Shown: in pieces, positions 13,666-50,460 of the stretch | Position numbering within the stretch: position 1 is the stretch's first letter | Layout: every line of letters starts with the position of its first letter | DNA from: Patescibacteria group bacterium | Lineage (GTDB): Bacteria > Patescibacteriota > Minisyncoccia > Phycocordibacterales > Phycocordibacteraceae | NCBI GenBank assembly: GCA_040388985.1 | Contig: JAZKAU010000002.1 | Span: 119,642 to 183,641 of the forward strand | Reading direction: 5' to 3' | DNA: 64,000 bases | Translations under genes and position numbers: made by a program | Notes under the pieces: generated by a model | Seen by the model: the letters and a program-made list of their open reading frames with translations, nothing else | Database searches by the model: none | Told to the model about the DNA's origin: nothing

Positions 13666-13715
13666 CCTCGAAGTGTCTTAGTAGACTGTGGAAATCACAG
13701 AATATACTTTATAAA

Positions 13716-13753
13716 AAATACATCGAGTCCTCTTTAGAGGACTCGATGTATTT
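13716..13753. terminator. perfect 17-bp stem hairpin flanked by A-tract and T-tract (bidirectional intrinsic terminator-like)
   Basis: aaatacatcgagtcctc-ttta-gaggactcgatgtattt; downstream of the minus-strand membrane-protein gene and upstream of the comM start. Confidence 0.6.
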
Positions 13754-13769
13754 TCGTTTGAACCGATAC

Positions 13770-17080: not shown

Positions 17081-17231
17081 ATGAAATGAGTTATAGGAGC
17101 AGGAAGGGCTGCATGCCAGCAATCCTGCGAACCTTAAAATAATTATGTAAACCGTAACGGTGTGTTACAAGAGTATTCTAACACTTACAAAACGTTCCGA
17201 TACGCCTAATCTGCATGGAGCGAGGTGTTTT

Positions 17232-17282
17232 AAATAAAAAGGGTCAAGCGTAATGCAGCGAAGCGAAATGCACTTTTTATTT
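17232..17282. repeat. palindromic-armed element A (AAATAAAAAG ... core tgcagcgaagcgaaatgca ... CTTTTTATTT) in the rpsO 3' region
   Basis: 10-bp perfect inverted AT-rich arms; the core is 30/31 identical to the element upstream of rny (46134-46206), in opposite orientation relative to the adjacent gene. Confidence 0.6.
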
Positions 17283-17300
17283 AAAATTCCGAGCGGAACT

Positions 17301-17576
17301 TTACTTCTTGAGGCCCAGCTTCTTTATAAGAGAGCTGTACTGACGCTTGTTATTCTTCTCCAGGTAGCGGAGATGCGTGCGACGGTCAGCGACCATCTGC
17401 AGGAGTCCGCGGCGGGAGTGAAAATCCTTCTGATTCTTCTTGAGGTGGCTCGTAAGCTCCTCGATCTTGCGGGAAAGGATACCGACCTGGACTGCGGCTG
17501 AGCCGGTGTCCGTAGCATGCAGCGCCGTGTTCTTAATAACGGCTGTTTTTACGCGTTTTGTAAGCATTGAAGGCAT
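17301..17576 (-). CDS. rpsO: 30S ribosomal protein S15
   Basis: 91 aa; HSRRGLL...LIKKLGL S15 signature. Confidence 0.92.
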   Translation of the reverse strand: MPSMLTKRVKTAVIKNTALHATDTGSAAVQVGILSRKIEELTSHLKKNQKDFHSRRGLLQMVADRRTHLRYLEKNNKRQYSSLIKKLGLKK

Positions 17577-18071: not shown

Positions 18072-18980
18072 ATGAACGCTGAGCAGATGAAACGTGAATT
18101 CCTCGAATACACGGAAATCGAGCGTGGCCGGGCCGTGAAGACCATTCAGAACTACGACCATTACCTCACTCGCTTCTTCAAGCAGATGCAGATAGCCAGT
18201 GTGGGTGATATTACCGAAGACAAGGTCCGCGAGTTTCGCCTGTGGCTCAATCGTCAGCCCGGTACGAACAAGGACTCCATGAAGCGCAAGACTCAGAACT
18301 ACTACCTCATCGCGCTGCGCGCCTTTCTCAAATATCTGCGCAAGCGTGGCATCGAAGGTCTGTCCCCTGAACGCATTGAGCTTGCGAAGGTTCCTGACCG
18401 CCATCTCGATCTGATTTCCTCTGCTGAACTCGACCGCTTGCTCAACTCCGCTGACGGTACTGACGAGCGGGGGCTTCGCGATAAGGCCATACTTGAGCTC
18501 CTGTTCTCTACAGGGCTGCGTGTTTCTGAGCTCTGTTCGCTCGACCGCGATCTTGATCTCGCGCGCGACAGCTTCCCTATCCGGGGAAAGGGAGAGAAGG
18601 TGCGCGTCGTCTTCCTTTCGGACGCGGCCAAGGATGCGGTCCGCGCATATCTCAAAGCCCGGAAGGACCTCGAAGACGCGTTGTTCGTGAATGTGCCTCG
18701 TAGCAGGACTATCAAGACCGCACCGTCGCGCCTCACTCCCCGCTCCATCGAGATGATGATAAAGATATATGCCGCCAAGGCCGGCATCACGAAGAAAGTC
18801 ACGCCGCACGTCATGCGTCACTCATTCGCCACCGACCTGCTCAATAACGGCGCTGATATTCGTTCCGTACAGCAGCTTCTCGGTCACGCCTCAATCACCA
18901 CCACCCAGATCTACACGCACGTTACCGACGCGCACCTCGCCAACGTCCACAAGCAGTTCCATTCCCGCGATCGCAAGTGA
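18072..18980 (+). CDS. tyrosine site-specific recombinase, XerC/XerD family
   Basis: Phage-integrase N-terminal SAM-like domain; catalytic R...HxxR...Y (HVMRHSFATDLL...LGHASITTTQIYTHV); 302 aa. The antisense ORF 17979..18821 was rejected. Confidence 0.9.
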   Translation: MNAEQMKREFLEYTEIERGRAVKTIQNYDHYLTRFFKQMQIASVGDITEDKVREFRLWLNRQPGTNKDSMKRKTQNYYLIALRAFLKYLRKRGIEGLSPERIELAKVPDRHLDLISSAELDRLLNSADGTDERGLRDKAILELLFSTGLRVSELCSLDRDLDLARDSFPIRGKGEKVRVVFLSDAAKDAVRAYLKARKDLEDALFVNVPRSRTIKTAPSRLTPRSIEMMIKIYAAKAGITKKVTPHVMRHSFATDLLNNGADIRSVQQLLGHASITTTQIYTHVTDAHLANVHKQFHSRDRK

Positions 18981-21903: not shown

Positions 21904-22308
21904 AGGACACTTATCCCCACAAATGTCCTTTACTCTGTCCTATACAAGCGTAGTATCAGTAAAGGAAGGGGAGCGGCAAGGCTTGTGAAGGGTTTGCCGG
22001 TTCCCGAAACCGGCTGATCTTTGTTGTTCTTTGTTCTCTATCAGGCGCATGTAGTGTGGTATCTCTAACTCTCTACTTACATCTTCGGGATGATTCCCTG
22101 ATACTTAAGCGAGCTAGACAGTGATGTAGGTTCCACGTGAAAGCGCAGTTTACACAAGCCGCCAGGACCATATCTCCCGGAGGCCACCAATTCTTGCCCC
22201 CGCTCAATATTTGGTCTCCTGTGCTCGGTCTCAAGCAGCTTACGACAAAGAGGTCGCAGTGAGTGATTTCAACAGATTGGAATCCCTCCCTGCGGCCTCT
22301 TTTCTTTT
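21904..22308 (+). ncRNA. candidate structured non-coding RNA region, unidentified (~400 nt gap between convergent genes ending in an intrinsic terminator)
   Basis: No credible ORF; ends with hairpin gaggtcgcag...ctgcggcctc followed by TTTTCTTTTC. A non-coding gap of this size is unusual in this compact window. Confidence 0.25.
22250..22308 (+). terminator. rho-independent terminator-like hairpin with U-tract
   Basis: 10-bp stem (one G-U), 30-nt loop, then tttcttttc. Confidence 0.45.
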
Positions 22309-22376
22309 CACATGAAACAGGAGCAAAAGTGCCGTAATCGCTAGCGATTACGGCACTTTTGCTCCTGTTTCATGTG
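22309..22376. repeat. perfect 68-bp palindrome (33-bp arms around a central ctag)
   Basis: cacatgaaacaggagcaaaagtgccgtaatcg|ctag|cgattacggcacttttgctcctgtttcatgtg equals its own reverse complement; 20 nt downstream of the cca stop. Confidence 0.8.
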
Positions 22377-22396
22377 GAACTATCTATGGGAAGCCT

Positions 22397-23918: not shown

Positions 23919-23990
23919 GCTCCTGTGGTGAAATGGATATCACAACAGTCTTCGGAACTGTCGTTCCAGGTTCGAATCCTGGCGGGAGCA
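23919..23990 (+). tRNA. tRNA-Arg (anticodon TCG), no encoded CCA
   Basis: Manual fold: acceptor GCTCCTG/CGGGAGC, D-arm GTGA..TCAC, anticodon loop CTTCGGA, T-arm CCAGG-TTCGAAT-CCTGG, discriminator A. Confidence 0.8.
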
Positions 23991-24010
23991 CAGAAGGAGG
24001 TGAGTCAGGT

Positions 24011-25396
24011 TTATCGCTTAACGACCAATCGCTGCAGAATCAGGCCTGCGACGATCACTCCGATCGATGTGTATGCGCTCAAGTGAAATGGTGCCGGAAT
24101 CGTGAAGAGAGCTAGCTCCGCCACTATCCAGCAGGCGGCTATCACTATCACCGGCATACGCCAGAGACCCAGAGAGAATGTATCTGGAGAGGGAAGCTTT
24201 TTCATGTTCAGTGCAAAGCTCAGAATAGTTATGAGGTATACCAGCGAGAGTAATATTATAGTCGTCGCATACAGCGCCGTCTGTCCGTAGGCGAATACGA
24301 TAAGTAATATCTCGATTGTGGCTACGAATATGGCTGCATTTGCCGGTACGCCTCGTCCCGAGACTTTCTTCAGGATGTGCGAGCCGCGCGTGGCCTCGTC
24401 TCGTGCCATGGCGAACGTCAGACGCGCTGCATTAGTAATGACGAGAAGGCCTACCGCCAGCATCGCTATGAGGACGCAGACTAGGAATATATACGTCGGT
24501 ATCATGCCCAAGTGATAGAAGAATATGCTCGAGACAGGATCAACTTCACTGGCGATAGTGGCTGCGTTTGGAATCGCAAGCGTAAGGATCAGCAAGAAGA
24601 TAAAGCCAAGGATGGCTGAAGAAGAGACGGCAGCTATAACACTCTGCGGCGCAGTCCGGCGGGCATTAAAGGTTTCTTCCGATACGTCAGAAGGAGCTTC
24701 ATAGCCGAATATCGTCCACGCCGCGAGAAGTCCCGAGATAAAGAACGCTGGCAAGTACGGAACGGGGTCGTGAGGAATGGTAGTGAGAAGGGCAAAATGC
24801 AAGCCACCATGTAGTACGGATGCGATCACGAGCGCCGTGCCGAATACGACGAGGGCTATCATCTCGATGATGACCGCATACCGGTTCAAGAGACCAGCGA
24901 AGGCTATGCCGTATATGTTTATGAATAGCTGGACGAGAACGATACTGATACCAATGACCTGCACCGTACCCGGACTGAACGTGTGGCCGAGCAGGGAGCC
25001 CAGAGGCGCCATCATGGCCGCTATGAGGCCGACGCCGGCGACCGCATAGCCGAAGATCGTAAGCCACCCTGCCTGCCACCCGACGGAATGCCCGCTCATG
25101 CGGGTATTCCAGTTATAGAGAGAGCCGGTAAGAGGAAGACGCCCTGCTATCTCAGCGAATACCAGCGCGACGAACATTTGACCGACAGCAACGATTGGCC
25201 ACGTCCAGATGCTGAAGGGTCCGGCCGATGCAAGAGCGAAGCCGTAGTTCGAATACACTCCCATTAGGACTGACATGAATGAAAAGGCAGCGGCGAAAGA
25301 AGCGAATCGGGTAAGCTTGCGACGCAGTTGGGGCTGGTATCCGGAATCAAGGATGAGCTGGTCATCTGCAGAGACTCTCTCGAATTGTGTTTCCAT
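24011..25396 (-). CDS. APC-family amino acid/polyamine permease
   Basis: 461 aa, 12 predicted TM helices, amino-acid permease-like N-terminus. Confidence 0.75.
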   Translation of the reverse strand: METQFERVSADDQLILDSGYQPQLRRKLTRFASFAAAFSFMSVLMGVYSNYGFALASAGPFSIWTWPIVAVGQMFVALVFAEIAGRLPLTGSLYNWNTRMSGHSVGWQAGWLTIFGYAVAGVGLIAAMMAPLGSLLGHTFSPGTVQVIGISIVLVQLFINIYGIAFAGLLNRYAVIIEMIALVVFGTALVIASVLHGGLHFALLTTIPHDPVPYLPAFFISGLLAAWTIFGYEAPSDVSEETFNARRTAPQSVIAAVSSSAILGFIFLLILTLAIPNAATIASEVDPVSSIFFYHLGMIPTYIFLVCVLIAMLAVGLLVITNAARLTFAMARDEATRGSHILKKVSGRGVPANAAIFVATIEILLIVFAYGQTALYATTIILLSLVYLITILSFALNMKKLPSPDTFSLGLWRMPVIVIAACWIVAELALFTIPAPFHLSAYTSIGVIVAGLILQRLVVKR

Positions 25397-25544
25397 GCCC
25401 GTACCCTACGTTCAGGGCGTTATATTAGAAGGACATGTCTGCATTCAGTATATTTTCACCACAATAACGAATAAAAACAGTTAATTTGACTATAATTTTG
25501 TCAGAATAGTTGACATAAAATGGGTGGTCCCGGAGAATGATGGG

Positions 25545-26282
25545 ATGGATATGGCGATTTTCAAAGCCCTCGGTATAGACGAAAAGGCTGCCGCTATCTA
25601 CCTTGCCACTCTTCTCCTTGGAACCACATCCGTACAACACATCGCCAGAAAATCGGGCCTCAAACGCCCGACCGTCTACTTGCACTTAGATGACCTTATT
25701 AAGCAAGGCTTGATCGAACATGTCCCGCTCCATAAGAAGAACTATTACCGGGCCACTGACCCCGTGGTAATCGAAGAGCGTTTAAAGAAGAATCTGTCTA
25801 CATTCCAGGCGCAAATGCCGAGGATGCAGTCCTTGCGAGCCGACACGATGGGGAAGCCGCAGGTACGGCTCCTCGAAGGGCAGGAGGGCATAAAGCAGGT
25901 CTACGAGGAGATACGGAAGACTAACAGCTTCAGAGTCTGGTCGAATGTCGGTCAGGAATATGGTCCGTTCCACAATACCTATATGGAGCTCGCCGAAACC
26001 ATCAAGGAGCAAGGGATAGGAGTGCGGGAGATAAGCGCGAATACCAAGGAATCTCGGCGCTATATACGCCTTATCGCCAAAGTCGCCGGCCCATCCTACA
26101 GCGTCCGCATGGCCACCGTTGATGGCATAGAGAACGATACGATCATATATGGGGATGTCATCGCATTGTTCCGCCTACCTGGCTTGAATCAATTTGTGGT
26201 GCGTATTGAGGACAAGACCATGGCCGATACTATGCGCGCCATGTTCGACATGGCCTGGAAGACGGCGCGACCTTTCAAATAG
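25545..26282 (+). CDS. TrmB-family winged-helix transcriptional regulator, paralog 1
   Basis: N-terminal HTH (IFKALGIDEKAAAIYLATLLLG...IARKSGLKRPTVYLHLDDLIKQGLI); C-terminal F..MAW motif shared by all seven paralogs. ORF M1 at 25524 is GTG, so the start is placed at an internal ATG. Confidence 0.7.
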   Translation: MDMAIFKALGIDEKAAAIYLATLLLGTTSVQHIARKSGLKRPTVYLHLDDLIKQGLIEHVPLHKKNYYRATDPVVIEERLKKNLSTFQAQMPRMQSLRADTMGKPQVRLLEGQEGIKQVYEEIRKTNSFRVWSNVGQEYGPFHNTYMELAETIKEQGIGVREISANTKESRRYIRLIAKVAGPSYSVRMATVDGIENDTIIYGDVIALFRLPGLNQFVVRIEDKTMADTMRAMFDMAWKTARPFK

Positions 26283-26331
26283 AACTCGAGGAATTGATGA
26301 AACGCCCAGGTTGTGAGAATATATACCCGTT

Positions 26332-26402
26332 GCGGGTATAGTTTAGTGGTAGAACGTGACGTTGCCAATGTCAAAGCGGGGTTTCGATTACCCCTACCCG
26401 CA
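26332..26402 (+). tRNA. tRNA-Gly (anticodon GCC), no encoded CCA
   Basis: Acceptor GCGGGTA/TACCCGC, anticodon loop TTGCCAA, T-arm GGGGT-TTCGATT-ACCCC, discriminator A. Confidence 0.85.
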
Positions 26403-26431
26403 CTCGAGTTTAGACAGGAAGCATAATGCGA

Positions 26432-26875
26432 TTAAGTAGAGTCCGATTCTCGGCGTTTCAAACTTACGCCTATTCCTGCATTTTCAGAGACATACTTAAT
26501 AGCCTTAGAAAGTAGCTCAGGCTTATCTTTAAACTGCCCTAGTCCTATATTGCAGTTGGAACAAAGTAAGCCTCGAACGACCATGGTTTTATGGCAATGA
26601 TCCAGAACAGGCCTCTTCATAGGGTTTTGACATATACCGCAAAGCCCTCGCTGCCTCTCAAACAAGTCTGCATATAGCTGTCTATGTGGCCCGGCAGTTC
26701 CAAATTTTTGGTTTAGCTTTTTATCCTCAAGACATTGTATGCAACACACTCGGCCCTCTGCCGAAGGATTTTTCGTGCAACTTGGACAAATACCCTTCTC
26801 CTTAAAAGCAGCCTTCCGGCGTCGCTGGTACGCTAAAAAATGTTGTCTTTGTTCCTCGGATTTCCAAGCGCTCAT
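26432..26875 (-). CDS. recombination endonuclease VII family protein (phage T4 endo VII-like)
   Basis: LDHCHKTMVVRGLLCSNCNIGLG motif matching Endonuclease_7 (DHxH...RGLLC..CN); multiple CxxC; 147 aa; adjacent to tRNA-Gly. Confidence 0.65.
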   Translation of the reverse strand: MSAWKSEEQRQHFLAYQRRRKAAFKEKGICPSCTKNPSAEGRVCCIQCLEDKKLNQKFGTAGPHRQLYADLFERQRGLCGICQNPMKRPVLDHCHKTMVVRGLLCSNCNIGLGQFKDKPELLSKAIKYVSENAGIGVSLKRRESDST

Positions 26876-27032
26876 ATTGCTTATATATCCACAATATACT
26901 TCTGTGGAAATAAGAAAAGGGGAAAAGTCTGTTAGTACTGGGGATAAAGGACAAATATTTTAAAAGATATTTATAGGGGCTTTAGGGATATTTTATAAAA
27001 TATTCAGTAAATACAAGCTATTCTTAAAGGCC

Positions 27033-27428
27033 GTGGAACTCAGCAATTCTTCACGTAAGGACATCGGGAACCTCGGAGAGCAGATCGCGGCCGAATATCT
27101 GCGTCGCCGCGGATTCACCGTCGTCGACCGCAATATCGTCCGAAAGACCGGCGAGCTTGATGTGGTAGCGCGCAAGGGAGACGTACTCCACGTTGTCGAG
27201 GTGAAAACCGTGCTCTGCGACAGCTTTCCGAACGACGCAACGAGCGACGACCAGTACGATCCGTCCGTGAATTTACACGCGCACAAGATTCAGAAAGTCG
27301 CGCGGACCGCCGAGTGGTATGTCGCGAGCAAAGACTGGAAAGGGGAGTGGCAGGTGGACGGTATCCTGGTCTGGCTACGCGCGCACGATGGCTTAGCCAG
27401 GGTCCGCTATTTCCCCCAAATCCTCTAG
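27033..27428 (+). CDS. YraN/UPF0102 family endonuclease-like protein
   Basis: GNLGEQIAAEYLRRRGFTVVDRN...GELDVVARKGDVLHVVEVKT matches YraN; GTG start. Confidence 0.7.
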   Translation: MELSNSSRKDIGNLGEQIAAEYLRRRGFTVVDRNIVRKTGELDVVARKGDVLHVVEVKTVLCDSFPNDATSDDQYDPSVNLHAHKIQKVARTAEWYVASKDWKGEWQVDGILVWLRAHDGLARVRYFPQIL

Positions 27429-27629
27429 GACACCTCCCAAAATACCCATCTACTTTGTTGCTCGCTCCGTTGCTCCCTCACCGTATAGCCCAATACGCCT
27501 CGGTACGCTCCTCACTCGCGCCTCGTAGCTGAGCATTTTTGAAAGTGTCCTGATTAGACCTTATATAAAAACCTGATAGAATAGGCAAAACAGGGGGTTC
27601 GAGACCATCTCGGTTCCCATTCTGTCATT

Positions 27630-27700
27630 CGGGGTGTCGTATACCGGTAGTACGACTGCTTTGGGAGCAGTTAGACGGGGTTCAATTCCCCGCACCCCGA
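27630..27700 (+). tRNA. tRNA-Pro (anticodon TGG), no encoded CCA
   Basis: Acceptor CGGGGTG/CACCCCG with C1:G72 and discriminator A, the bacterial tRNA-Pro hallmark; anticodon loop TTTGGGA with G37; T-arm CGGGG-TTCAATT-CCCCG. Confidence 0.75.
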
Positions 27701-27911
27701 CAAATTAGCGAGCGCAGCGAGACAATTTGTCGGGGCGAGCAGGCAAACTGCTTTGCCTGAGTCGGGGAATTGAAAGGCGGAACATGTCTGAGGCTCTGCG
27801 AGGACAGTGAGCCGGGGTGGCGGATACTTAGCGAGTCTTCGAGCTTAGTAAACCGTGACCAATCCCCGCACAATTTAATAAGCAGCAGCCAGTTCTCCAA
27901 AATACTAAGTA

Positions 27912-29003
27912 CTAGTCCGCAACAATCTCCCCACCCTTCACCTTCGGGAAATACACATTCGGTACTCGCAGTCCTGCGTTGTCGAAGTATACGTCTCCAT
28001 CTGCACCGACGAATCTTGCGTCTTTCATATTCTGGATCCACTGCATAGAATCCTTGCTGTACGTCTTAGCTAGAAGCTCAAAGGAGTCGTACCCGACTTC
28101 TGAGCCGAACGGGGGCTGCTCGCCATATTTAGCCACATACTGCTTAGTAAATTCAGCCGTAGGTGCGTTATTGGAAGCCGATACGATACTTCCTTGGATT
28201 CCCGCCAGATCGCTACCCAGTACTGCTTGATATTCTGGTAGTCCCGACTGGATACTCTGATCGAAGACGAAGTACGGGCGAGTGGCAGCAGTTGTAATCG
28301 TGAGGATCTCTTTCACGAGCAGTGCCCCGTCTCTCGGAGCCATGAATAGGCAGACGACATCAGGCTTTGACGCGACTATCGCTAAAGCTTGAGAACGGAT
28401 ATCACTTACATCGCTACCAATATTGAATTTCGGCACGTTCCCGCCATACCCGTCGTTGAAGCCATTATAGAAGTTCTGATACACGGAGGTGGAGTTGCTT
28501 ACGGCCGCTACCGGTTTCTTGTATCCGAGTCGCCTTACTTCAATGCCAAGCGCGTGCTGGACAGGGTTAGCTGCAGGGACTACCTGGAAGATATTGTCAT
28601 CTTCGGCGGGCTCCGTTTGCTCAAAGCCGAGTGCAACCGGCTTCTTCTCCGTATGAACGGCGTCATATATGACGTCTATAGTGAATGTCGTAAGCACCGC
28701 GTATGCGTCAGGAGCATTGAATTCTTGAAGCTTTTTGTATGCGGAGAGTCCGGTCGTCGAATCGAAGTGATCGTCCTCAGTCGTTGCTTCGAACTTGAGA
28801 TCATGAGAACCGTTCCACTGCTCTAGTGCGAGATTAAAGCCCTTCACATATCCCTCCCCAACCGCAGCATACTGACCGGTCATGCCGGCAATGACTCCTA
28901 GATGAACCACGGATGCTTCCTTCTTGTGGCCGATAGAACTTACGGCATAGGCAAGTATGCCAAGAATAACGATTGCGACAGCAACGACCAGAAGTTTCTT
29001 CAT
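27912..29003 (-). CDS. ABC transporter substrate-binding protein, LivK/branched-chain amino acid-binding type (orphan, no permease adjacent)
   Basis: N-terminal signal anchor, periplasmic-binding type I fold motifs (GVIAGMTGQYAAVGEGYVKG); 363 aa. Confidence 0.7.
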   Translation of the reverse strand: MKKLLVVAVAIVILGILAYAVSSIGHKKEASVVHLGVIAGMTGQYAAVGEGYVKGFNLALEQWNGSHDLKFEATTEDDHFDSTTGLSAYKKLQEFNAPDAYAVLTTFTIDVIYDAVHTEKKPVALGFEQTEPAEDDNIFQVVPAANPVQHALGIEVRRLGYKKPVAAVSNSTSVYQNFYNGFNDGYGGNVPKFNIGSDVSDIRSQALAIVASKPDVVCLFMAPRDGALLVKEILTITTAATRPYFVFDQSIQSGLPEYQAVLGSDLAGIQGSIVSASNNAPTAEFTKQYVAKYGEQPPFGSEVGYDSFELLAKTYSKDSMQWIQNMKDARFVGADGDVYFDNAGLRVPNVYFPKVKGGEIVAD

Positions 29004-29213
29004 AAATATAAGGGTTAGGGAAGTAAAGGCGCACGGAGATTCTTTACTTATGTGGGCAATCCTGGCGTAGTTATATTATAACGTCAAGTATTTTGTCTAA
29101 AATATGAGCATCAAATATCGCAAAAACCTTCATTCTATAAGGTTGTATGAAAAACTTGCTACTTATCATCAAAATTATTGACTATTTTATAACAATGCAT
29201 ACACTTCAAATAT

Positions 29214-29960
29214 ATGGACGTCTCCGAGTCGCTAACGGCCCTGGGCTTGAATGAGAAGCAATCGACTATCTACGTAGCATTACTGCAACTCGGGCGAGGA
29301 AGCGCGTATTCGATCGCCGATAAGGCGGGGATAAAGCGACCGACCGCCTACGTCATTCTAGGAGAACTTATTGAGAAGGGGCTCGTGTCTCGGGTGCCAC
29401 GGGTGCGCAAACAGCTATACGTTGCCGTATCACCGGAACAAGCCTTCGCATCTGCCGAGGAGAGACTGGCCGCGGCCAAGCAAAAACTGCCGGAGCTGCT
29501 AGCGATGACCAAGGGCGCAGATTCGAAAGTGAACGTGCTTTTTTTCGAAGGCGTGAAGGGTATAAAGCAGGTTATGGAATATAAGCGGGAGGAAGATAAA
29601 GGTAAAGAGTTCGTGGGCTTCTACGCTATGACGAAGAACGTGCCCAAAGACCTGCTTGAATATTTTGAAGAATGGAATGAGAAAGTCCGCAAGAGAGGTA
29701 CAACCATGCGCGGTATCGTACCGGATCACTCAACCCTTGCCTTCCATCGCTCGCAGGACAAGCACTTGGGAAGGGACATGAAGATAGTGCCGTATAAGCA
29801 ATTCTCGTCGGAGGTCGCCATAGATATCTCCGAACGCATAGTGCGTATCCACGACTATAAGAATCTCCAAGGCGTTGCCATAGAGAACGCGGACGTAGCG
29901 AAGACGATGCGAGAGATATTCGAGATGTTGTGGAGTCGCATCCCTGAGCGGGAAACATAG
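29214..29960 (+). CDS. TrmB-family winged-helix transcriptional regulator, paralog 2
   Basis: LTALGLNEKQSTIYVALLQLGRGSAYSIADKAGIKRPTAYVILGELIEKGLV HTH; C-terminal REIFEMLW motif; ATG start. Confidence 0.7.
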   Translation: MDVSESLTALGLNEKQSTIYVALLQLGRGSAYSIADKAGIKRPTAYVILGELIEKGLVSRVPRVRKQLYVAVSPEQAFASAEERLAAAKQKLPELLAMTKGADSKVNVLFFEGVKGIKQVMEYKREEDKGKEFVGFYAMTKNVPKDLLEYFEEWNEKVRKRGTTMRGIVPDHSTLAFHRSQDKHLGRDMKIVPYKQFSSEVAIDISERIVRIHDYKNLQGVAIENADVAKTMREIFEMLWSRIPERET

Positions 29961-29997
29961 CCAGACCGAGTCCGAATATGGTATCCTCGCTCTTACA

Positions 29998-30068
29998 GCG
30001 GGATTAGTTTAATGGTAGAACATCAGTTTTCCAAACTGAGAGCAGGAGTCCGATTCTCCTATCCCGCA
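29998..30068 (+). tRNA. tRNA-Trp (anticodon CCA), no encoded CCA
   Basis: Acceptor GCGGGAT/ATCCCGC, anticodon stem CAGTT/AACTG with loop TTCCAAA, T-arm AGGAG-TCCGATT-CTCCT, discriminator A. Confidence 0.8.
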
Positions 30069-33037: not shown

Positions 33038-34006
33038 TTACTCGGTTAGGCTCTTGAAGAAAGCCGGGCCTCCACCCCAGATCGGTCCACCAGAACACTG
33101 AACGGCCGCAGCACCTGCTTCCAAGTAGTCAGATACGTCTTGAGTGGTAAGCACGCCCCCACAACCAATGATATCGACCGCAAGGTCGTGAGCCCTTAAG
33201 AATCTTATAGTCTTGAGATTCCCGGCCTTAAGAGCTCGCCCCGAGAGTCCTGCGCTCCTACTGACCGTTCCATCAGCTCTTTTAATCTGGATTTCTGTAC
33301 CGCGGACGACTTGCGGAAGGCCGTTTGAGACGATAACGGCTGAGATAATCTCGGAGTATTCTTTCAATAGTTTTTGCAATTCATCCATAAAGGTCTCGGT
33401 AACAGTAGGGCAGTCACTAAAATCATAAGACGGATACTCAGCACCAAGCTGTGTGAGATCATTACTGGTTAGATACGGGGATAGCTTGAACCAGAGGGGT
33501 TTGGTAACTGACAGTTTCTTGATCTCGATAAATAGCTCCCTCAATGAATGAATTGAGTACGCAAGCGGCGCATGTCCCATAGTCGGACAGCTGCAATTTA
33601 TTTCGATTGCGCCTACTCGTGATACATTCTGATGCGTTGCGATAGCTTTAAGAGAACGAAGATATTCATCCGTGCTATATCCCGCAATGCTGATGACTAT
33701 CGGCTTCGGAGAGTTGGGTGGAAGGTTATCCATTGTATCGATAATGCCCAAATTGCGCATGCCATTAGCATGCAGCCCTCCCTCGGCGAAGAACGTTTGG
33801 TAAGCGCCATGCACTCCCGGCCAATTCAGCACGCCGGCATTCCCCGTACGCTCATTAGGAGTGATAGAACCGATGGTCACTGCTCCTACTACGTCTACGA
33901 TATTAAGATAATCCTTAATATCTGGTGAGAGGGGAGACTTTACTACGCCTCCACCCAGGAAGACAGGGGAGCTAACGCTTAGGCCTCCCACGCGGTATCT
34001 TTTCAT
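33038..34006 (-). CDS. dihydroorotate dehydrogenase-like FMN-dependent oxidoreductase (class 1 DHOD/DHPD family)
   Basis: TIM-barrel DHOD motifs (VGAIEINCSCPTMGH; IIGCGGVLTTQDVSDYLEAGAAAVQ); the ORF N-terminus to 34108 is over-extended, so the start is at MKRYRVGG. Confidence 0.7.
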   Translation of the reverse strand: MKRYRVGGLSVSSPVFLGGGVVKSPLSPDIKDYLNIVDVVGAVTIGSITPNERTGNAGVLNWPGVHGAYQTFFAEGGLHANGMRNLGIIDTMDNLPPNSPKPIVISIAGYSTDEYLRSLKAIATHQNVSRVGAIEINCSCPTMGHAPLAYSIHSLRELFIEIKKLSVTKPLWFKLSPYLTSNDLTQLGAEYPSYDFSDCPTVTETFMDELQKLLKEYSEIISAVIVSNGLPQVVRGTEIQIKRADGTVSRSAGLSGRALKAGNLKTIRFLRAHDLAVDIIGCGGVLTTQDVSDYLEAGAAAVQCSGGPIWGGGPAFFKSLTE

Positions 34007-34111
34007 TGACATAAGTATAATAGATTGCATAAATACATACAAAAATGTATACAGATTATCAAAAAATATGATTTTACTGTTATAATATATAGTATTAATG
34101 TTGTTCAAGTT

Positions 34112-34852
34112 ATGGACAGAAATATAAAGATACTGGAAGAATTTGGACTTTCTGAAGAAGAGGCGCAGGTATATCTGGCTGGCCTCTCCCTTGGGCCCAC
34201 TACTATTCTCAAATTAGCTAAGACGGCTGAGGTCCAGCGGACTTCTGTGTACCGAGTAGTCGAATCGCTGCGCCAACACGGTCTGATGAAAACCGAGCTC
34301 AAGGGCTTGAAGAAGCTTTACGCGGTTGAAAGTCCACATAACCTGAAACGGGTCCTCGAGGAGAAGGTGGAGCAAATGAACGATATCCTTCCCGGATTGC
34401 TATCGATTTATAAGAAGCAAGGTAAGGATACGCTGATTAAATATCACGAGGGGATAGAGAGCGTTAAGAGCGTATACGAATCTCTTTTGCGTGAGAATCG
34501 TAGCGGAGAGCCATATTATGTCATCTCCTCTCATCAAGAATGGTACAAGCTGGATGAAAAATGGTTTGAAGATTTTTCTGAACGTAGAAACCGAGAGCAT
34601 TTCGACTTCAGATTTTTCCTTCTTGATTCTGAACCAGCGCGCTTGCTTAAGGAGCGAGAGGAAGCTCTAGGTATAAAGGTAAAGATATTACCTTCTAGCC
34701 TTGATTTCACTTCGATACTTATCCTGACAAAGGATAAGATTTACATTCATAACTTCGAACCGCCGATCGAAGGCCTGGTGATCGAGAACCAGGACATGAT
34801 CACCATGATGCTGCAGGTATTTAAAATAATGTGGGAAGCAATCCCCGAGTAG
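34112..34852 (+). CDS. TrmB-family winged-helix transcriptional regulator, paralog 4
   Basis: ILEEFGLSEEEAQVYLAGLSLGPTTILKLAKTAEVQRTSVYRVVESLRQHGLM; C-terminal LQVFKIMW; the ORF N-terminal extension was rejected. Confidence 0.7.
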   Translation: MDRNIKILEEFGLSEEEAQVYLAGLSLGPTTILKLAKTAEVQRTSVYRVVESLRQHGLMKTELKGLKKLYAVESPHNLKRVLEEKVEQMNDILPGLLSIYKKQGKDTLIKYHEGIESVKSVYESLLRENRSGEPYYVISSHQEWYKLDEKWFEDFSERRNREHFDFRFFLLDSEPARLLKEREEALGIKVKILPSSLDFTSILILTKDKIYIHNFEPPIEGLVIENQDMITMMLQVFKIMWEAIPE

Positions 34853-34861
34853 CTAAGTCAA

Positions 34862-35581
34862 TCACTTCAAACTCCGCCACTCCTTATCAAATATATCTTC
34901 GTGATATTCGGCGATCATGTCGTTCGCTATAAGCACACCGAACAGATTTTCGAATGAGATAAGTGCCACGTGACCGTTAAAGACGATCATATTGATTGCC
35001 GGCGTGTATCCCTTCTCTAGGAATCGATATCGGTAATTCTCGCTTCCCTTATATTTTCTACGTTTTACTCCCAACTCTGTCCTTTCGATAAGCACCTTCG
35101 CATCAATACCTTTTTCTTTCACTCTTTCGACGAATCTGTCTTCCTTTGCAGCAAAGACTTCCAGATACTTATCTGGAGAGAAGATACTTTTTATATATCC
35201 CGCCTTCTGCACAATTTCCGTGTATAAGTCTTGCAGCCCGTCCTTATCCTGATATAGCGTAATGCTCGGCGTCTGCTTCACCGATGAAAAGACGACGGTT
35301 AGCGCTTCCAAGTTCTTCTCAAATTCAAATGCTGCGCTGTGATACTTCGTTACGAGCGATTTCGGATTTTCTGCCAAATAATACAGTCGTTTCCCGAGTA
35401 CGGTCTTCTTTATATAGTTCTTCTCCAAGAGATTCTCTAGATACGCATACAGCGTCGTCCTGTTTATCCTTGTCGCACTCGATATGCCTGCCAGATTTAG
35501 TCGGCCTCCTCGCAAGATAGCCAGGTATACGCGAGACTCATTCTTTGTCAGGCCCAACTTCTCCAATCCCTGGGTTTCCAT
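34862..35581 (-). CDS. TrmB-family winged-helix transcriptional regulator, paralog 5
   Basis: LEKLGLTKNESRVYLAILRGG...RINRTTLYAYLENLLEKNYI; C-terminal EDIFDKEW. Confidence 0.7.
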   Translation of the reverse strand: METQGLEKLGLTKNESRVYLAILRGGRLNLAGISSATRINRTTLYAYLENLLEKNYIKKTVLGKRLYYLAENPKSLVTKYHSAAFEFEKNLEALTVVFSSVKQTPSITLYQDKDGLQDLYTEIVQKAGYIKSIFSPDKYLEVFAAKEDRFVERVKEKGIDAKVLIERTELGVKRRKYKGSENYRYRFLEKGYTPAINMIVFNGHVALISFENLFGVLIANDMIAEYHEDIFDKEWRSLK

Positions 35582-35771
35582 CCATATACAGTATGCCTAT
35601 ATGAATAAATGTCAAAAATAATGAATCTTTTATCTATATAACTTAATAAGATGGCTCATTACATAGCTAATAAAACAGAATATTTGAATATTTTGTCAAT
35701 AAATAATAAGGTCACCGCAGAAGGGAAGGCAGCCTCTTCAACGACTCGATTCGCTGTTTGGGAGAGAAACG

Positions 35772-36146
35772 ATGGGAAACGTTCGTGATCAAGGAAGAAA
35801 AATTAGGATTCTCGAATCTGCTTACCGTGTGGCAGATGCCTTCGCAAGAGCAATCTTAGTAGCGGTCCTAACGGCTTTGACTGTTGTGATTGGACTTCTA
35901 GGTGCTCAGCTTGGAGCTGTCTGTGGTGCCGTCGCATGTGCACTCGTAGGCGTCCTCTTGGTTGTCACTACTGTGTTCCTTTGCGTGTTAAGTATCGGTG
36001 CACTGGAACCGTTCCCTGATCCTCAACAGCTCGAAGCTATGTGGGCATGGGGGTGGGCTGCAGGAGGCTGGGTTGGGGCGTTCTTGCCTCCAATGATCTT
36101 CTTGTGGACGTTGTTCCTACTTCTCAACCGTGAAGATTACCCGTGA
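35772..36146 (+). CDS. small membrane protein (3 TM), unknown function
   Basis: GGGAGAG SD; hydrophobic helices; 124 aa; followed by a 9-bp hairpin. Confidence 0.45.
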   Translation: MGNVRDQGRKIRILESAYRVADAFARAILVAVLTALTVVIGLLGAQLGAVCGAVACALVGVLLVVTTVFLCVLSIGALEPFPDPQQLEAMWAWGWAAGGWVGAFLPPMIFLWTLFLLLNREDYP

Positions 36147-38783: not shown

Positions 38784-39134
38784 GCCGCTCGGCTTCCTGT
38801 GGTACCATAATCAGCACTATGAGCGAAAGATTTGATCGATATCTACCAAGACAAGAGAAACCCCTAGACTCAGGTATTCTTCCGGACGCGATCCCTGACA
38901 TTGAAAGGACCGCTACTCAATTACGAGAGCAAGGGGCGGCCCGCGGGCTCGTTGAGGCAGGTACTCTAGGACCAGATGAAAGGAATGCGCTTGCCGAGGT
39001 ACTTTCTGGCATTCCAGGCCGTAATCTGGGGATTGAGTGATATATCGCCTTACACCCTCGCCAGGCAAAACGAACGAGCGGCCACTTATAGTGGCCGCTC
39101 TTTCGTTTTGCCCTCAGAAGCGTACACTTTTTAC

Positions 39135-44055: not shown

Positions 44056-44165
44056 GATAGGTACTCCTCTACACTGAGCGCAGTAAACGCTAGTCAATAC
44101 TAAGTGTCAAGAAATGAAGAAAAGGCCGCCCGTGAGGGCGGCCTTTTCTTCATTCGGAACCGATA

Positions 44166-46116: not shown

Positions 46117-46133
46117 AGATAAAGGGTCGCTCA

Positions 46134-46206
46134 GTCCCTGGGCAAATAAAAAGTGCGTTTCGCTTCGCTGCACTCGGCATTCAAGCCTTTTTATTTGCCC
46201 AGGGAC
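46134..46206. repeat. palindromic-armed element B (20-bp perfect inverted arms gtccctgggcaaataaaaag / ctttttatttgcccagggac around a 33-nt core) 18 nt upstream of the rny start
   Basis: The core contains tgcagcgaagcgaaacgcac, 30/31 identical to element A at 17232-17282; the inner segment gctgcactcggcattc resembles element C. Confidence 0.65.
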
Positions 46207-46262
46207 CTCGCTAAAGTTGCGGGATTGCTAGGGCACCGTACCATATTTGGAGTTTCCGGTAC

Positions 46263-46296
46263 AGAAATGGCGACTCCGAGCGGAGTCGCCATTTCT
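46263..46296. terminator. 16-bp perfect stem hairpin downstream of clpP
   Basis: agaaatggcgactccg-ag-cggagtcgccatttct. Confidence 0.5.
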
Positions 46297-47041: not shown

Positions 47042-47263
47042 ATGGCAACAACCAAGAAACGTATCAATATAAGCGTGTCCAAAGAGATGGACGACGTACT
47101 CGGAAGACTTGCGAAGCGCGATCAAGTTCCTCAGGCGACCAAGGCGGAACATCTCATCCAGCTTGCTCTTGAGATAGAGGAAGATGAAGCTTTGGACGTC
47201 ATCGCGCGTAAGCGTGATGTGAAGAGCGCACGCTTCATCCCCCATACTCGCGCATGGCAGTAA
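47042..47263 (+). CDS. ribbon-helix-helix type II antitoxin (RelB/ParD/CopG-like)
   Basis: Small basic N-terminus (KKRINISVSKEMDDVLGRLAKRD); overlaps the downstream RelE-like gene by 10 nt. Confidence 0.65.
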   Translation: MATTKKRINISVSKEMDDVLGRLAKRDQVPQATKAEHLIQLALEIEEDEALDVIARKRDVKSARFIPHTRAWQ

Positions 47264-47544
47264 TATACGAGGTCGTATATGAGAGCCAGGTAGTATCGGT
47301 CGATATCCCGAAGCTCCCTCGCGCATTGAAAGAAAGAATCCGAAGCGCGATTGAAGAGAAACTTACTACCCACCCTGACGTGTATGGTAAGCCGCTGCGG
47401 CGCTCGCTCAAGGGATATCGTAAACTGCGAGTCGGCGACTACCGCGTGGTATTCCGCATCGACTCCTCCAAGATAAAAGTCTTTGCCATACTCCACCGAT
47501 CAGTGGTCTACGCCATTATGGAGAGACAGGGCGGAAGTTCCTAA
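47254..47544 (+). CDS. relE: RelE/ParE family type II toxin
   Basis: 96 aa; YRVVFRID...KIKVFAILHR motif. Confidence 0.8.
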   Translation: MAVIYEVVYESQVVSVDIPKLPRALKERIRSAIEEKLTTHPDVYGKPLRRSLKGYRKLRVGDYRVVFRIDSSKIKVFAILHRSVVYAIMERQGGSS

Positions 47545-47717: not shown

Positions 47718-47771
47718 ATCTACTCTTTACTATACTAGTCGTGTAGATTTCATGAAACTTACAGGATAATT

Positions 47772-47809
47772 GAAATCCCCCTGAAGGCTGTGGCCTTCAG
47801 GGGGATTTC
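47772..47809. terminator. 17-bp perfect stem hairpin downstream of ppa
   Basis: gaaatccccctgaaggc-tgtg-gccttcagggggatttc. Confidence 0.6.
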
Positions 47810-47843
47810 ATAAGTTCTTCAGTTTTCTTTTAGAACCGGAAGA

Positions 47844-48398: not shown

Positions 48399-49853
48399 CT
48401 AGGATGCGTCTTTGACGGACTCGGAGCTCTCGTCGCGAGCCTCGCTCGCGTCCGAGGTCGCGCCGTTGTCCGTGAAACCAGTCTCCTCTTCCATGCTGAG
48501 CGAGCCGTTCGTTTCATCCGCTGCGTCAGGGACGATGATGGACTCGGTGCCCACCGTATCAGCCTCAGCGACAGAGTCGCTCTGGGGATCGGTAAGGGCT
48601 TCCTGCATCTCGCTCGCGCCTTCGCTCGCGGCCTCGTCTATGGTCTCTTCGGATGGAGTCTGGTCAGGACGCAGTGATACGTCAGCGTCGGCTTCTCCTA
48701 CGGATTCACCGCCGAGCGAGATGATGTCGATATTCCAGCCAGTGAGCTTCGCGGCCAGGCGTACGTTCTGTCCGCCGCGGCCGATGGCGAGTGACTGCTG
48801 GTCTTCGCTTACGGTAACGAGCGCGCGGTGATCAGCTTCGTCGAGTTTCACCTCGAGGACGGATGCAGGATTGAGCGACTCCTTTATATAGGCAACCTGG
48901 TCTTCGGACCATTCGATGATGTCGATGCGCTCTCCGCCGAGTGCGCCCATGACGGTCGAGACGCGTACGCCGCGCTGACCTACGAGCGCGCCAACAGGAT
49001 CGACATGTGGGTCGATGGAAGCGATGGCGATCTTCGTGCGGCTACCTGCTTCGCGCGCGAGCCCTTTGACTTCAAGGGAGCCAGCTGCAAGTTCAGGCAC
49101 TTCGGCTTCGAAAAGTTTCACAAGGAATTTCGGATGCGCGCGTGAAAGGCGCAGGTATACGCCGCGGAACCCTTCATCCACCGTGTAGAGGAAGGCACGG
49201 ATACGCTCGCCGGCACGGAAGCGCTCTCCCGGAATCTGCTCCTCGTAGGGGATGATGCCGGTCGCGCGACCGAGGTCGACGAAGATGGCACCGCGCTCGA
49301 TGCGCTGGACGATACCGGAAACGATCTCGCCCTTCTTGTGACCGAACTCTTCGAGGATGGAGAGCTTCTCGGCCTCGCGGATCTTCTGGATGACGACCTG
49401 CTTTGCGGTCTGTGCCGCGATGCGGCCGAAGTCGTCCTGCGGCTCGAGCGGGAAGACGAGTTCGCCGCCGAGCGTGGCGTCGCGCTTGATGCGCTTGGCG
49501 TCCTCGAGGAGGATGTGCTTCTCAGCGTCGAAGCGAGGAAGCTCGCCTTCAGGAGTATCGTCGTGCTCGTGTCCGAAGCGATCCTGGTGATGGTCAGCCT
49601 GCGCAAGCTCCTCCACTTCCTCAGGATCAGGGAAGCGCACCATCGTATCGTCCACGATGGTCTTTACCTGTTCGAAGGTGACTCCGCCCGAGTTCATGTC
49701 GAGCTTGGCGCGCACGACCTGGCCGCGCTTGCCGTACTCCTTCTTGTACGCGGTCGCCATGGCTGACTCGATGGCCTCCATCATGGTCTCACGGCTGATG
49801 CCGCGGTCTTCGAACTCTCCGAGCACTGAATGTATCGTCTTTAGGTCCAACAT
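48399..49853 (-). CDS. nusA: transcription termination/antitermination factor NusA with acidic C-terminal extension
   Basis: N-terminal NusA domain, S1 and two KH domains; ~90-aa acidic Asp/Glu/Ser tail; ATG confirmed. Confidence 0.9.
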   Translation of the reverse strand: MLDLKTIHSVLGEFEDRGISRETMMEAIESAMATAYKKEYGKRGQVVRAKLDMNSGGVTFEQVKTIVDDTMVRFPDPEEVEELAQADHHQDRFGHEHDDTPEGELPRFDAEKHILLEDAKRIKRDATLGGELVFPLEPQDDFGRIAAQTAKQVVIQKIREAEKLSILEEFGHKKGEIVSGIVQRIERGAIFVDLGRATGIIPYEEQIPGERFRAGERIRAFLYTVDEGFRGVYLRLSRAHPKFLVKLFEAEVPELAAGSLEVKGLAREAGSRTKIAIASIDPHVDPVGALVGQRGVRVSTVMGALGGERIDIIEWSEDQVAYIKESLNPASVLEVKLDEADHRALVTVSEDQQSLAIGRGGQNVRLAAKLTGWNIDIISLGGESVGEADADVSLRPDQTPSEETIDEAASEGASEMQEALTDPQSDSVAEADTVGTESIIVPDAADETNGSLSMEEETGFTDNGATSDASEARDESSESVKDAS

Positions 49854-49981
49854 ATTCGTGTATTTAATTGTGTATTCCCGTATGTAATTTTCGCCCGATA
49901 AAAAGAAAGGCCCGCGGGTGCGGACATCTCAGACCTCTACAACATACCATATATAGGCTCACTCGGTCAACGAGCCGTTCG

Positions 49982-50056
49982 GAGCCGGAGATAAAAGCGC
50001 CGTTCCGCATAGGAATGCTGCACTTGGCAATCCTGAACCGCTTTTATCTCCGGCTC
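49982..50056. repeat. palindromic-armed element C (18-bp perfect inverted arms gagccggagataaaagcg / cgcttttatctccggctc around a 39-nt core) ~130 nt upstream of nusA
   Basis: The core gctgcacttggcaatc resembles gctgcactcggcattc of element B (13 of 16 positions identical); ATAAAAG/CTTTTAT arm signature as in A and B. Confidence 0.6.
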
Positions 50057-50169
50057 CTCTCTGCGTTACCTCGTTCGCTTTCAGGGGCAGAGCTTGATAT
50101 TTGTTGGTAGTATGGTAAAAATCATTCGGTTGCCAATCCGGCACTGAATAATCTACAGGAGACGTTGTT

Positions 50170-50460
50170 ATGCCGGGAGGAAGCATGAATACCCGCCCCT
50201 TCGATCCCACCAGTAAGCTGGACTGGTTCAGCGCGGATTTCGGAGCTCTGTTCTACACCACGATCGTCGTATGCATCGTACTCGCCGTTCTGGTCGGCGG
50301 AAGCTATGCCATCGTGTCATACTTCTCCGTTCAGACTCAGATCCTGCTGCTGATTGGCGCGAGCGTGGCGATCGCCTTCGTGATCGTGTTCTGCCTCCGG
50401 CGGAACTGGATGGTCCACGGCGAACCGCGGCAATTCCGCTATATCTGCCGCTGGCTCTGA
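50170..50460 (+). CDS. small membrane protein (2 TM), unknown
   Basis: 96 aa with two long hydrophobic helices. Confidence 0.4.
   Translation: MPGGSMNTRPFDPTSKLDWFSADFGALFYTTIVVCIVLAVLVGGSYAIVSYFSVQTQILLLIGASVAIAFVIVFCLRRNWMVHGEPRQFRYICRWL

Follow-up and report, generated by a model that had tools for sequence, protein, structure and literature searches.

The nusA gene of a Patescibacteria group bacterium (assembly GCA_040388985.1, contig JAZKAU010000002.1) is preceded by a short hairpin followed by a T-run, and comparison with related genomes identifies the two together as a conserved, nusA-specific, terminator-like leader element. The DNA analysed here is a 64,000-nt stretch of that contig, referred to below as the window, and positions are counted from its first letter. 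We read the region as a self-limiting leader terminator of nusA accompanied by an unrelated, recently spread palindrome, element C, which lies upstream of the promoter. This account as a whole appears to us reasonably probable.

A terminator-like hairpin in the nusA leader

The following features of the nusA locus, listed from the coding sequence outward, were used in the analysis.

48399–49853, minus strand: nusA coding sequence, 484 amino acids, taken from the list of open reading frames; first gene after the promoter, with its ATG at 49853.

49898–49909, minus strand: T/U-rich tract from the terminator scan, CUUUCUUUUUAU; its first five bases form the lower 3' arm of the extended stem and UUUUUAU is unpaired.

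49905–49930, minus strand: leader hairpin, GAGAUGUCCGC-ACCC-GCGGGCCUUUC, with the core stem at 49910–49925 (GTCCGC/ACCC/GCGGGC), about 5 nt past the predicted start.

49941–49970, minus strand: nusA promoter from the promoter scan, with the -35 box TTGACC (49965–49970), an 18-nt spacer and the TG-extended -10 box TATGTT (49941–49946).

The identity of the gene was confirmed by Pfam, which finds NusA_N, S1 and NusA KH domains in the open reading frame, and an identical protein carries the name NusA in a Patescibacteria metagenome-assembled genome (MAG) at NCBI. The best nusA relatives are MAGs of the Paceibacterota/Kaiserbacteria type, to which the window is assigned, and a homologue search with this NusA returned only close relatives (at least 69% identity). 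No rimP gene lies between the leader and nusA; the gene after nusA encodes a pyrophosphatase and the gene upstream, of 96 amino acids, is divergent. The promoter appears to be of the sigma-70 type, and we infer a transcription start near 49934. Read on the minus strand toward the AUG, the order is the 96-amino-acid gene, its promoter-like site, element C, 10 nt, the nusA promoter, about 10 nt, the hairpin, UUUUUAU and a 45-nt unstructured stretch.

Hairpin and U-tract together span 49898–49930, where the minus strand reads ...GTCCGCACCCGCGGGCCTTTCTTTTTAT. The core GTCCGC/ACCC/GCGGGC (49925–49910) is the pairing favoured by the comparative data. The extended hairpin has 10–11 bp and a predicted folding energy of -13.3 kcal/mol. 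The terminator scan picked GTCCGCACCCGCGGGC + CTTTCTTTTT in this leader. Judged by a G+C-rich stem, a loop of 3–8 nt and at least five U within 8 nt past the stem, the element qualifies as an intrinsic terminator, with six core pairs (five of them G-C), a 4-nt loop and the tail CUUUCUUUUU. The fold places weak A-U and G-U pairs in the lower stem and a C interrupts the U-tract; the leader downstream of the hairpin is predicted to be unstructured. An initial annotation of the sequence had described gcccgcgggc followed by a T-tract at this place. The hairpin and T-tract are indeed found on the minus strand, but the stem sequence had been slightly misread and is GTCCGC/ACCC/GCGGGC. By itself such a site is unremarkable, as the scan expects 0.7 of them per 600 nt, and this one is significant because it is conserved in relatives.

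Conservation and nusA specificity of the hairpin

Relatives were compared at 82 nusA loci, namely 80 from different Paceibacterota species together with L085 (88% NusA identity) and L086 (90%). Nearly all of the 80 share one layout, which consists of TTGAC, 17–18 nt, (TG)TAnnnT, about 10 nt ending in CTG(A/G), the hairpin and the T-rich tract. When the window is set against L001, a locus with 90% NusA identity, near-complete identity covers the stretch bounded by the -35 hexamer and the T-tract, both included, and is lost on either side of it.

In a MAFFT alignment of all 57 leaders chosen at first (A1) the divergent stems were out of register, and RNAalifold recovered only 3 pairs from it; in its place we used A2, in which 29 leaders are aligned without gaps, and A3, in which 61 sequences are aligned with guidance from the model. 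The covariance model R1, built from A2, was searched over 1.42 Mb of related loci on both strands. It gave 51 matches at E<0.01, all directly 5' of nusA and one per locus, and none away from nusA at the same threshold. On the window itself, with filters off, the nusA leader was the sole hit, at 62 bits, and the next best site, an ordinary terminator, reached 18 bits.

Base pairing is supported by substitutions as well as by the fold. Canonical pairs fill 95% of the cells on A2, against 39–58% when the 3' partners are slid by 1–3 columns, and three pairs on A2 show double changes (C-G to G-C, C-G to U-A and A-U to G-C). On A3, double changes occur at 6 of the 11 pairs. The consensus hairpin among the relatives is GAAAUGUCCGC-ACCC-GCGGGCAUUUC, with a C-rich 5' arm. 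Distant loci retain the position, the upstream CTG and the T-tract while their stems differ (AACCGCCC/GGGCGGTT, GTTCGCC/GGCGAAC, GCCCC/GGGGC and AACCGTCCT/AGGTCGGTT), and across the set the T-rich tract is kept in nearly all loci, even those with a different stem sequence. Since a CCGC...GCGG core is common to most stems, the stem is constrained in sequence as well as in pairing.

The distance from the -35 box to the first paired base is 38–40 nt in 49 of the 51 loci, so that the stem would begin some 5 nt into the transcript. Matches to TTGAC-N17-20-TAnnnT number 228 in the 1.42 Mb, and 62 of them are followed by a terminator-like hairpin and T-tract beginning no more than 25 nt from the -10 box. 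As 61 of these 62 are nusA promoters, a proximal terminator is not a general promoter habit in these genomes. The suggestion in the initial annotation that this element is a possible attenuator gains support from such conservation and gene specificity, as well as from the rimP/nusA-leader and B. subtilis precedents considered below.

A/C/U-rich motifs beside the start codon

Between the T-tract and the ATG, the leader carries two related motifs.

49861–49873, minus strand: leader motif copy 2, ACACAATTAAATA, 8 nt upstream of the ATG; a candidate single-stranded protein-binding site resembling nut and rrn spacers.

49880–49896, minus strand: leader motif copy 1, GGGCGAAAATTACATAC, which stands in tandem upstream of copy 2 and is related to it; the relatives have GCGACAATTACATAC here.

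Two types of motif were recognised among the relatives. Type 1, (G)TGCG(A/C)ACAACTAAATA, stands about 10 nt before the ATG in 34 loci, often after a related GCGACAATTACATAC, and the window carries AAAATTACATAC and ACACAATTAAATA as motifs of this type. Type 2, GTGCGACATACA(C/T)A(T/A)(T/C)CCATATG, abuts the ATG in 26 loci. Tandem motifs of the form ACAATTACATA / ACAAYTAAATA, or ACATACACATTCCATATG, thus adjoin the start codon both in the window (49853–49900) and in the leaders L001–L086.

These motifs are highly specific to nusA. ACAAYTAAATA occurs 27 times in the 1.42 Mb, both strands counted, and every time about 20 nt 5' of nusA; the 38 occurrences of ACAAYTAMATA and the 22 of ACATACAYAWYCCATATG likewise all fall in nusA leaders. 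About one match would be expected by chance in a sequence of that length, as calculated for such motifs. With this distribution the motifs are no general features of ribosome binding. A translational enhancer of the S1 type would be another explanation, but occurrence at nusA only is not what such an enhancer would lead one to expect.

In the window, AAAUUACAUAC and ACACAAUUAAAUA (49861–49896) are predicted to be unpaired, and they contain AUU or AUA. The same trinucleotides are the critical bases in RNAs bound by the S1-KH1-KH2 (SKK) portion of E. coli NusA, namely the rrn spacer ACAAUUUA, the nutL spacer AAAAUUAA and the nutR spacer CACAUUCCA (Prasch et al. 2009). We considered the RNA forms GGGCGAAAAUUACAUAC, ACACAAUUAAAUACACGAAUAUG and GACAUACACAUUCCAUAUG as candidate NusA ligands. 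The leader motif ACAAUUA(A/C)AUA is comparable with the rrn spacer, and a 9/9 match to the nutR spacer was found in seven relative loci. Like the lambda nutR and nutL spacers, the E. coli rrn spacers and the M. tuberculosis rrn boxC ligand, the motifs are single-stranded in the predicted fold, rich in A, C and U and furnished with AUU or AUA. They differ from the nut and rrn spacers in having no adjacent boxA (GCUCUUUA) or boxB and in lying at the ribosome-binding region rather than at an antitermination site. By this analogy the motifs may provide a second NusA contact, through its KH and S1 domains.

Two further candidates were rejected. GUGCGAACAACUAAAUA was examined as a boxA and lacks the GCUCUUUA core. 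Pairing of the conserved GUGCG past the terminator with CGCAC of the hairpin, as a pseudoknot or antiterminator, was discarded because GUGCG is retained where the hairpin lacks CGCAC. For a comparison with rRNA leaders, the related loci contained no 16S genes.

Relation to known nusA leaders

An Rfam scan of the whole window at gathering scores returned four tRNAs only. The rimP-leader, which we take to be an Rfam family, gave no match at E<=10 on 49800–50200 and none at E<=1 on 8 related loci, and the same holds for any other meaningful match. A search of the literature on nusA leaders in Patescibacteria found none.

The rimP-leader is the most widespread predicted attenuator; it has a short terminator with an unusually conserved stem and no antiterminator, and NusA has been proposed as its effector (Naville & Gautheret 2010, Genome Biol 11:R97). 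The element described here resembles it in being a short hairpin with a U-stretch in the leader of a NusA-encoding operon (in at least 51 related loci), in a stem conserved past the needs of pairing and unique to that leader, in the lack of an antiterminator, in a variable distance to the start codon and in having NusA as the obvious candidate effector. The differences are also clear. The rimP-leader operon starts with rimP-nusA-infB, whereas here nusA comes first; the published stem is GGGc...gCCC, whereas the polarity here is reversed, with a C-rich 5' arm and a G-rich 3' arm (CCGC...GCGG); the hairpin here lies only about 5 nt from the predicted start; and Rfam models fail to match it even at the permissive threshold. 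Patescibacteria were unknown when the family was defined. The upstream tandem terminator of the gammaproteobacterial rimP leader (CCCg...cGGG), which precedes the same operon, does share the G/C polarity, its 5' arm being rich in C. That system has a clear antiterminator and a second downstream terminator, in contrast to the single hairpin without antiterminator space found here.

In B. subtilis, according to the summary in PMC12288461 of a 2016 study, NusA is autoregulated through NusA-stimulated termination in its own leader. On the basis of that summary, the two cases have in common a terminator ahead of the nusA operon, and the weak lower pairs and interrupted U-tract seen here are typical of factor-assisted terminators; the effect summarised there was proven by experiment and is a prediction here. 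The B. subtilis leader is about 180 nt long (Naville & Gautheret 2010), in contrast to the promoter-proximal hairpin of the window. By analogy with these systems, the nusA element would be the Patescibacterial counterpart of the rimP/nusA-leader attenuator.

Palindrome C lies upstream of the nusA promoter

The most prominent structure of the region is found on the far side of the promoter.

49981–50057: element C, a nested palindrome with arms GGAGCCGGAGATAAAAGCG / CGCTTTTATCTCCGGCTCC (49981–49999 and 50039–50057), 19 nt and perfect, around a 39-nt self-folding core.

50094–50122, plus strand: promoter-like site of the divergent 96-amino-acid gene, TTGATA-17-AAAAAT, directed away from C; found by the promoter scan as a consensus match only.

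The initial annotation had reported an 18-bp perfect inverted repeat about 130 nt upstream of nusA. The repeat is perfect but 19 bp long, and the distance from the end of its proximal arm to the nusA ATG is 128 nt. A perfect repeat of this size exceeds chance; with up to 3 mismatches the arm has no other copy in the window, where 0.06 would be expected. C folds at -47 kcal/mol on either strand, and its core contains a second near-palindrome, GGAATGC-N8-GCAATCC. Two independent Logan contigs (L081 and L084, run SRR26324622) end inside the core at 50018–50020, which indicates that C is real in a second data set and that it breaks de Bruijn assemblies.

C is separated by 10 bp from the conserved nusA -35 box and stands between the divergent promoters of nusA and the 96-amino-acid gene. 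Because it lies upstream of the -35 box, it falls outside the transcript of the conserved promoter. It is also absent upstream of nusA in all 82 related loci, including those with 88–90% NusA identity, as judged by regular expression, BLAST-short and inverted-repeat searches. Relatives without C keep the promoter-hairpin module almost unchanged, and L001 is unalignable upstream of the -35 box. C is thus not part of the conserved nusA leader, contrary to its initial placement there, and the conserved structure that a comparison of related leaders brings out is the small hairpin and not C.

C belongs to a small repeat family

C has two relatives in the window.

46134–46206, minus strand: element A, whose perfect arms of 20 nt enclose a core of 33 nt; it belongs to the rny leader, in sense orientation, and the rny ATG (46116) follows 17 nt later.

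17228–17286, plus strand: element B, whose arms are perfect over 14 nt (over 18 nt with one mismatch) and enclose a core of 31 nt; it separates the rpsO stop from a NYN-domain gene, and its core is oriented opposite to both flanking genes.

ATAAAA-N25-50-TTTTAT occurs at exactly three sites in the window (A, B and C), against 0.01 expected. The cores of A and B are identical at 18 of 19 positions, and BLAST aligns 29 nt at 97%. The likeness of the C core to that of the rny element, noted in the initial annotation, was upheld: they agree at 14 of 16 positions in the same orientation (GCTGCACTTGGCAATC in C, GCTGCACTCGGCATTC in A), with p of about 4e-4 from a local-alignment shuffle. Formal alignment in this way recovered the A/B/C similarity. 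In the same test B and C alone were not significantly similar, and no pair was similar in reverse orientation. The inner arm, ATAAAA(A)G / C(T)TTTTAT, is common to all three copies, and A and B have the 5' flank AGCGAGGT in common as well. The outer 8–10 bp of the arms are wholly different between copies (GTCCCTGGGC, GGAGCCGGAG and GGTGTTTT) yet perfectly complementary. Each copy folds at -18 to -48 kcal/mol on either strand. A MAFFT alignment of the three was not structure-consistent, with the left arms shifted by 3 against the right arms.

The 64-kb window contains 3 perfect repeats whose arms reach at least 13 nt and whose loops measure 20–50 nt, against 9 in 1.35 Mb of relatives. No homologue of A, B or C was found in 1.4 Mb of related loci by BLAST-short, the ATAAAA...TTTTAT regular expression or a search for perfect inverted repeats, and about 8 kb of extra flanking sequence held no further copy. 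The pattern GCAGCGAAGCGAAA-N0-8-CTTTTTAT gave one chance match in a coding region among metagenome contigs and none among viral contigs, so that no further copy of A or B emerged. L085, L086 and L001 are without A, B and C while their flanks align. At the L085 rny site only about 16 nt separate the conserved AAATRTGRTA -10 region from the rny ATG, with no A; at its rpsO site the canonical terminator GAAATCCCCGG/CCGGGGATTTC stands in place of B; and its nusA site has a plain upstream spacer. In L001 and L086 the rny ATG is directly preceded by a different insert, of about 88 nt, which contains an imperfect hairpin of 14 bp.

As three related gains would have occurred since the split from species at 88–90% identity, we read A, B and C as a recently spread palindromic repeat in intergenic DNA, not as an ancient shared regulatory RNA. 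Palindromic intergenic repeats are well known, among them REP/BIME and MITE-like elements such as Correia or ERIC. The three elements are similar to these in being short (60–90 nt), hairpin-forming and intergenic in either orientation, in being present or absent between close relatives and in breaking short-read assemblies. A classical MITE differs, for the outer arms vary here and the inner arms and loop are conserved, which is the reverse, and only three copies are known. By eye, direct repeats are short and imperfect (AGCAA / AGCGA round A, GAGCG round B), with no clear target-site duplication. No search was made for a partner transposase, and the only recombinase noticed is a XerC-like gene at 18072–18980, 0.8 kb from element B. 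The attC site, retron non-coding RNA and IS200/IS605 ends were rejected by eye, since there are no R'/R'' boxes, extrahelical bases, nearby reverse transcriptase or TnpA. Variable outer arms round a conserved inner palindrome would fit either insertion into pre-existing hairpins or selection for a long stem.

Some observations concern the neighbourhoods of these repeats. The rny 5' region is highly plastic (window 46117–46250, L001 14190–14314, L086 14596–14729, L085 13028–13118). L006, L008, L009 and L012 share a long rny leader with the conserved blocks gtgttattttataagggttc ... gaaacggctgaaa ... cccgaacctaa, which may itself be a leader element of RNase Y. At 17301–17576 / 16568–17080, rpsO is followed by a NYN-domain (RNase-like) gene and not by pnp, and the same pairing occurs in L045 and L085. 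In the rpsO direction the window has B in place of the L085-type terminator, and no obvious terminator is left. L015 (16911–16977) and L016 (20471–20537) carry an identical intergenic inverted repeat, whose perfect arms of 17 nt enclose a 33-nt core that includes ACACGCTTCGCGTGT; its arm-and-loop architecture is that of A, B and C, and its sequence is unrelated.

Other features of the window

A 74-bp near-perfect palindrome at 22306–22379 (37-nt arms, no spacer, 97%) is intergenic, just 3' of a minus-strand gene of 488 amino acids, and a same-organism Logan contig ends near it (position approximate). We take it for a very long terminator acting in both directions or else for a hairpin sensitive to assembly. 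Gene-end hairpins at 13715–13754, 39064–39112, 44113–44154, 46263–46296 and 47771–47810 have unusually long perfect stems of 16–23 bp, loops of 2–4 nt and A-rich/T-rich outer flanks, and resemble terminators that serve both directions; by comparison the hairpin of the nusA leader is far shorter and weaker. The G+C content is 0.42 at 34001–36000, against 0.50–0.59 elsewhere, and four tRNA genes lie at 23919–30068, spaced 1.3–2.4 kb apart; this region may be a foreign or island-like segment. PrgI and TraC-like conjugation/type IV secretion genes are found just past the left end of the window (L083 15158–17655). A ParE-toxin gene lies between ppa and clpP, 2 kb downstream of nusA (L081 2477–2767; window about 47250–47540).

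Possible autoregulation of nusA and alternative explanations

NusA-dependent attenuation is the most likely function of the hairpin by analogy with the known leaders, and we consider it fairly probable. In this scheme the hairpin would form about 5 nt into the transcript and the following U-run would release an RNA of about 35 nt, so that the fraction of RNA polymerase reaching nusA would be set by the termination efficiency of the hairpin. Read-through would depend on this efficiency because there is no room upstream for an antiterminator, with the stem at about +5, and the downstream leader is unstructured. Termination efficiency is a property modulated by NusA and NusG. The most likely setter would be NusA itself, which by aiding hairpin folding and pausing would exert negative feedback.

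A bolder reading has two separate parts and is possible but rather doubtful. The NusA-assisted promoter-proximal terminator, its CCGC...GCGG read by the elongation complex, and the nut-spacer-like sites would form a two-part switch, in which the KH and S1 domains of NusA would bind ACAAUUACAUA / ACAAYUAAAUA, or ACAUACACAUUCCAU, at the ribosome-binding region and repress its own translation. Separately, A, B and C could be a new kind of hairpin-seeking mobile element that inserts into existing stems, and such insertion would explain the variable outer arms.

Several points weigh against our account. Both the transcription start and termination are predictions. The stem is more conserved than pairing demands and covariation in the close group is modest, so part of the conservation signal may come from shared ancestry. 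Kinship with the rimP-leader is a functional analogy, not a shown homology, because the Rfam model is unmatched and the G/C polarity is reversed. The resemblance of the motifs to NusA ligands was noticed after the fact, and the affinities of E. coli NusA for its spacers are weak, in the micromolar range (Prasch et al. 2009). As for C, a weak promoter-like match from the promoter scan upstream of it (TTGGCA-16-CATACT, 50136–50109) could drive transcription through it, and is the sole route by which C might be transcribed. All three repeat copies adjoin RNA-metabolism genes, which is unexpected for random insertions.

The main rival to attenuation is that the hairpin is a 5'-terminal stabiliser of the nusA mRNA that blocks 5'-end-dependent RNases, the T-run being incidental. 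In 49 of 51 loci the spacing between the -35 box and the hairpin is fixed, which would put the hairpin about 5 nt from the 5' end. A protective hairpin needs such placement but a terminator does not, and the observation counts against attenuation to that extent. We nevertheless regard a stabiliser as unlikely, since the T-rich tract is retained even with an altered stem sequence, the stem sequence is conserved past the needs of a passive stabiliser, and a generic stabiliser should recur at other promoters, not at nusA in 61 of 62 cases among 228 promoter-like sites. Still less credible, indeed highly improbable in our view, is that the region is a DNA or initial-transcribed signal, that is, a repressor operator or a sigma-dependent pause at the conserved CTGAAAT past the start. 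CTGA(A/G)ATGTCCGC...GCGGGCATTTC is highly conserved at a fixed distance from the promoter, and by our own reading TGAAAT resembles a -10 hexamer. Distant relatives, however, swap the stem sequence and keep the pairing and T-tract, which fits an RNA structure and not a fixed operator, and the support for pairing is far above that of the slid controls.

For the palindromes, the initial annotation had raised a shared RNA-level mechanism at rny, nusA and rpsO, and A, B and C could accordingly be paralogous structured RNAs in the three transcripts, cleaved in their stems by RNase III or bound by a common factor, with C in the nusA leader. This would agree with their RNA-metabolism neighbours, with outer arms that differ and remain perfectly complementary around shared inner arms, core and short 5' flank, with the sense position of A in the rny 5' untranslated region and with the weak promoter-like site upstream of C; stems of 19–20 bp are long enough for RNase III. 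Such a mechanism is quite unlikely, because C is untranscribed by the conserved promoter downstream of it, all three copies are missing at orthologous sites of relatives with 88–90% NusA identity, and the core of B is antisense to both neighbouring genes; nor did a copy turn up in the 1.4 Mb from relatives, among the metagenome and viral contigs scanned or as an Rfam match. Alternatively, C might act as DNA between divergent promoters, as a supercoil-absorbing cruciform or a regulator site that tunes the nusA promoter while untranscribed. Its position between the promoter-like sites at 49941–49970 (minus) and 50094–50122 (plus) suits this idea, as do its perfect 19-bp arms and the near-palindrome in its core. 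A and B, however, are not between divergent promoters, and C is missing in relatives with a nearly identical nusA promoter, which makes C dispensable for the conserved regulation and this role very unlikely. We retain the reading of C as a recently spread repeat. For the region this carries a caution: its most eye-catching structure would be a recent repeat insertion and not a regulatory element.

Implications

If the account is right, autoregulation of NusA by a leader terminator would extend to the ultra-small, regulator-poor and little-studied Patescibacteria, in a stripped-down form consisting of a promoter, a hairpin five nt on, a U-tract and a brief unstructured segment bearing motifs specific to the gene, which current Rfam models miss. 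With a simple covariance model the leader could be annotated in hundreds of MAGs. Being short and free of an antiterminator, the compact module would offer a clean system for asking what makes terminators NusA-sensitive and whether NusA recognises particular RNA sequences close to its own start codon. Should the two-part switch prove true, it would represent a minimal module, of natural origin, for the recognition of RNA by NusA in organisms that have very few regulators.

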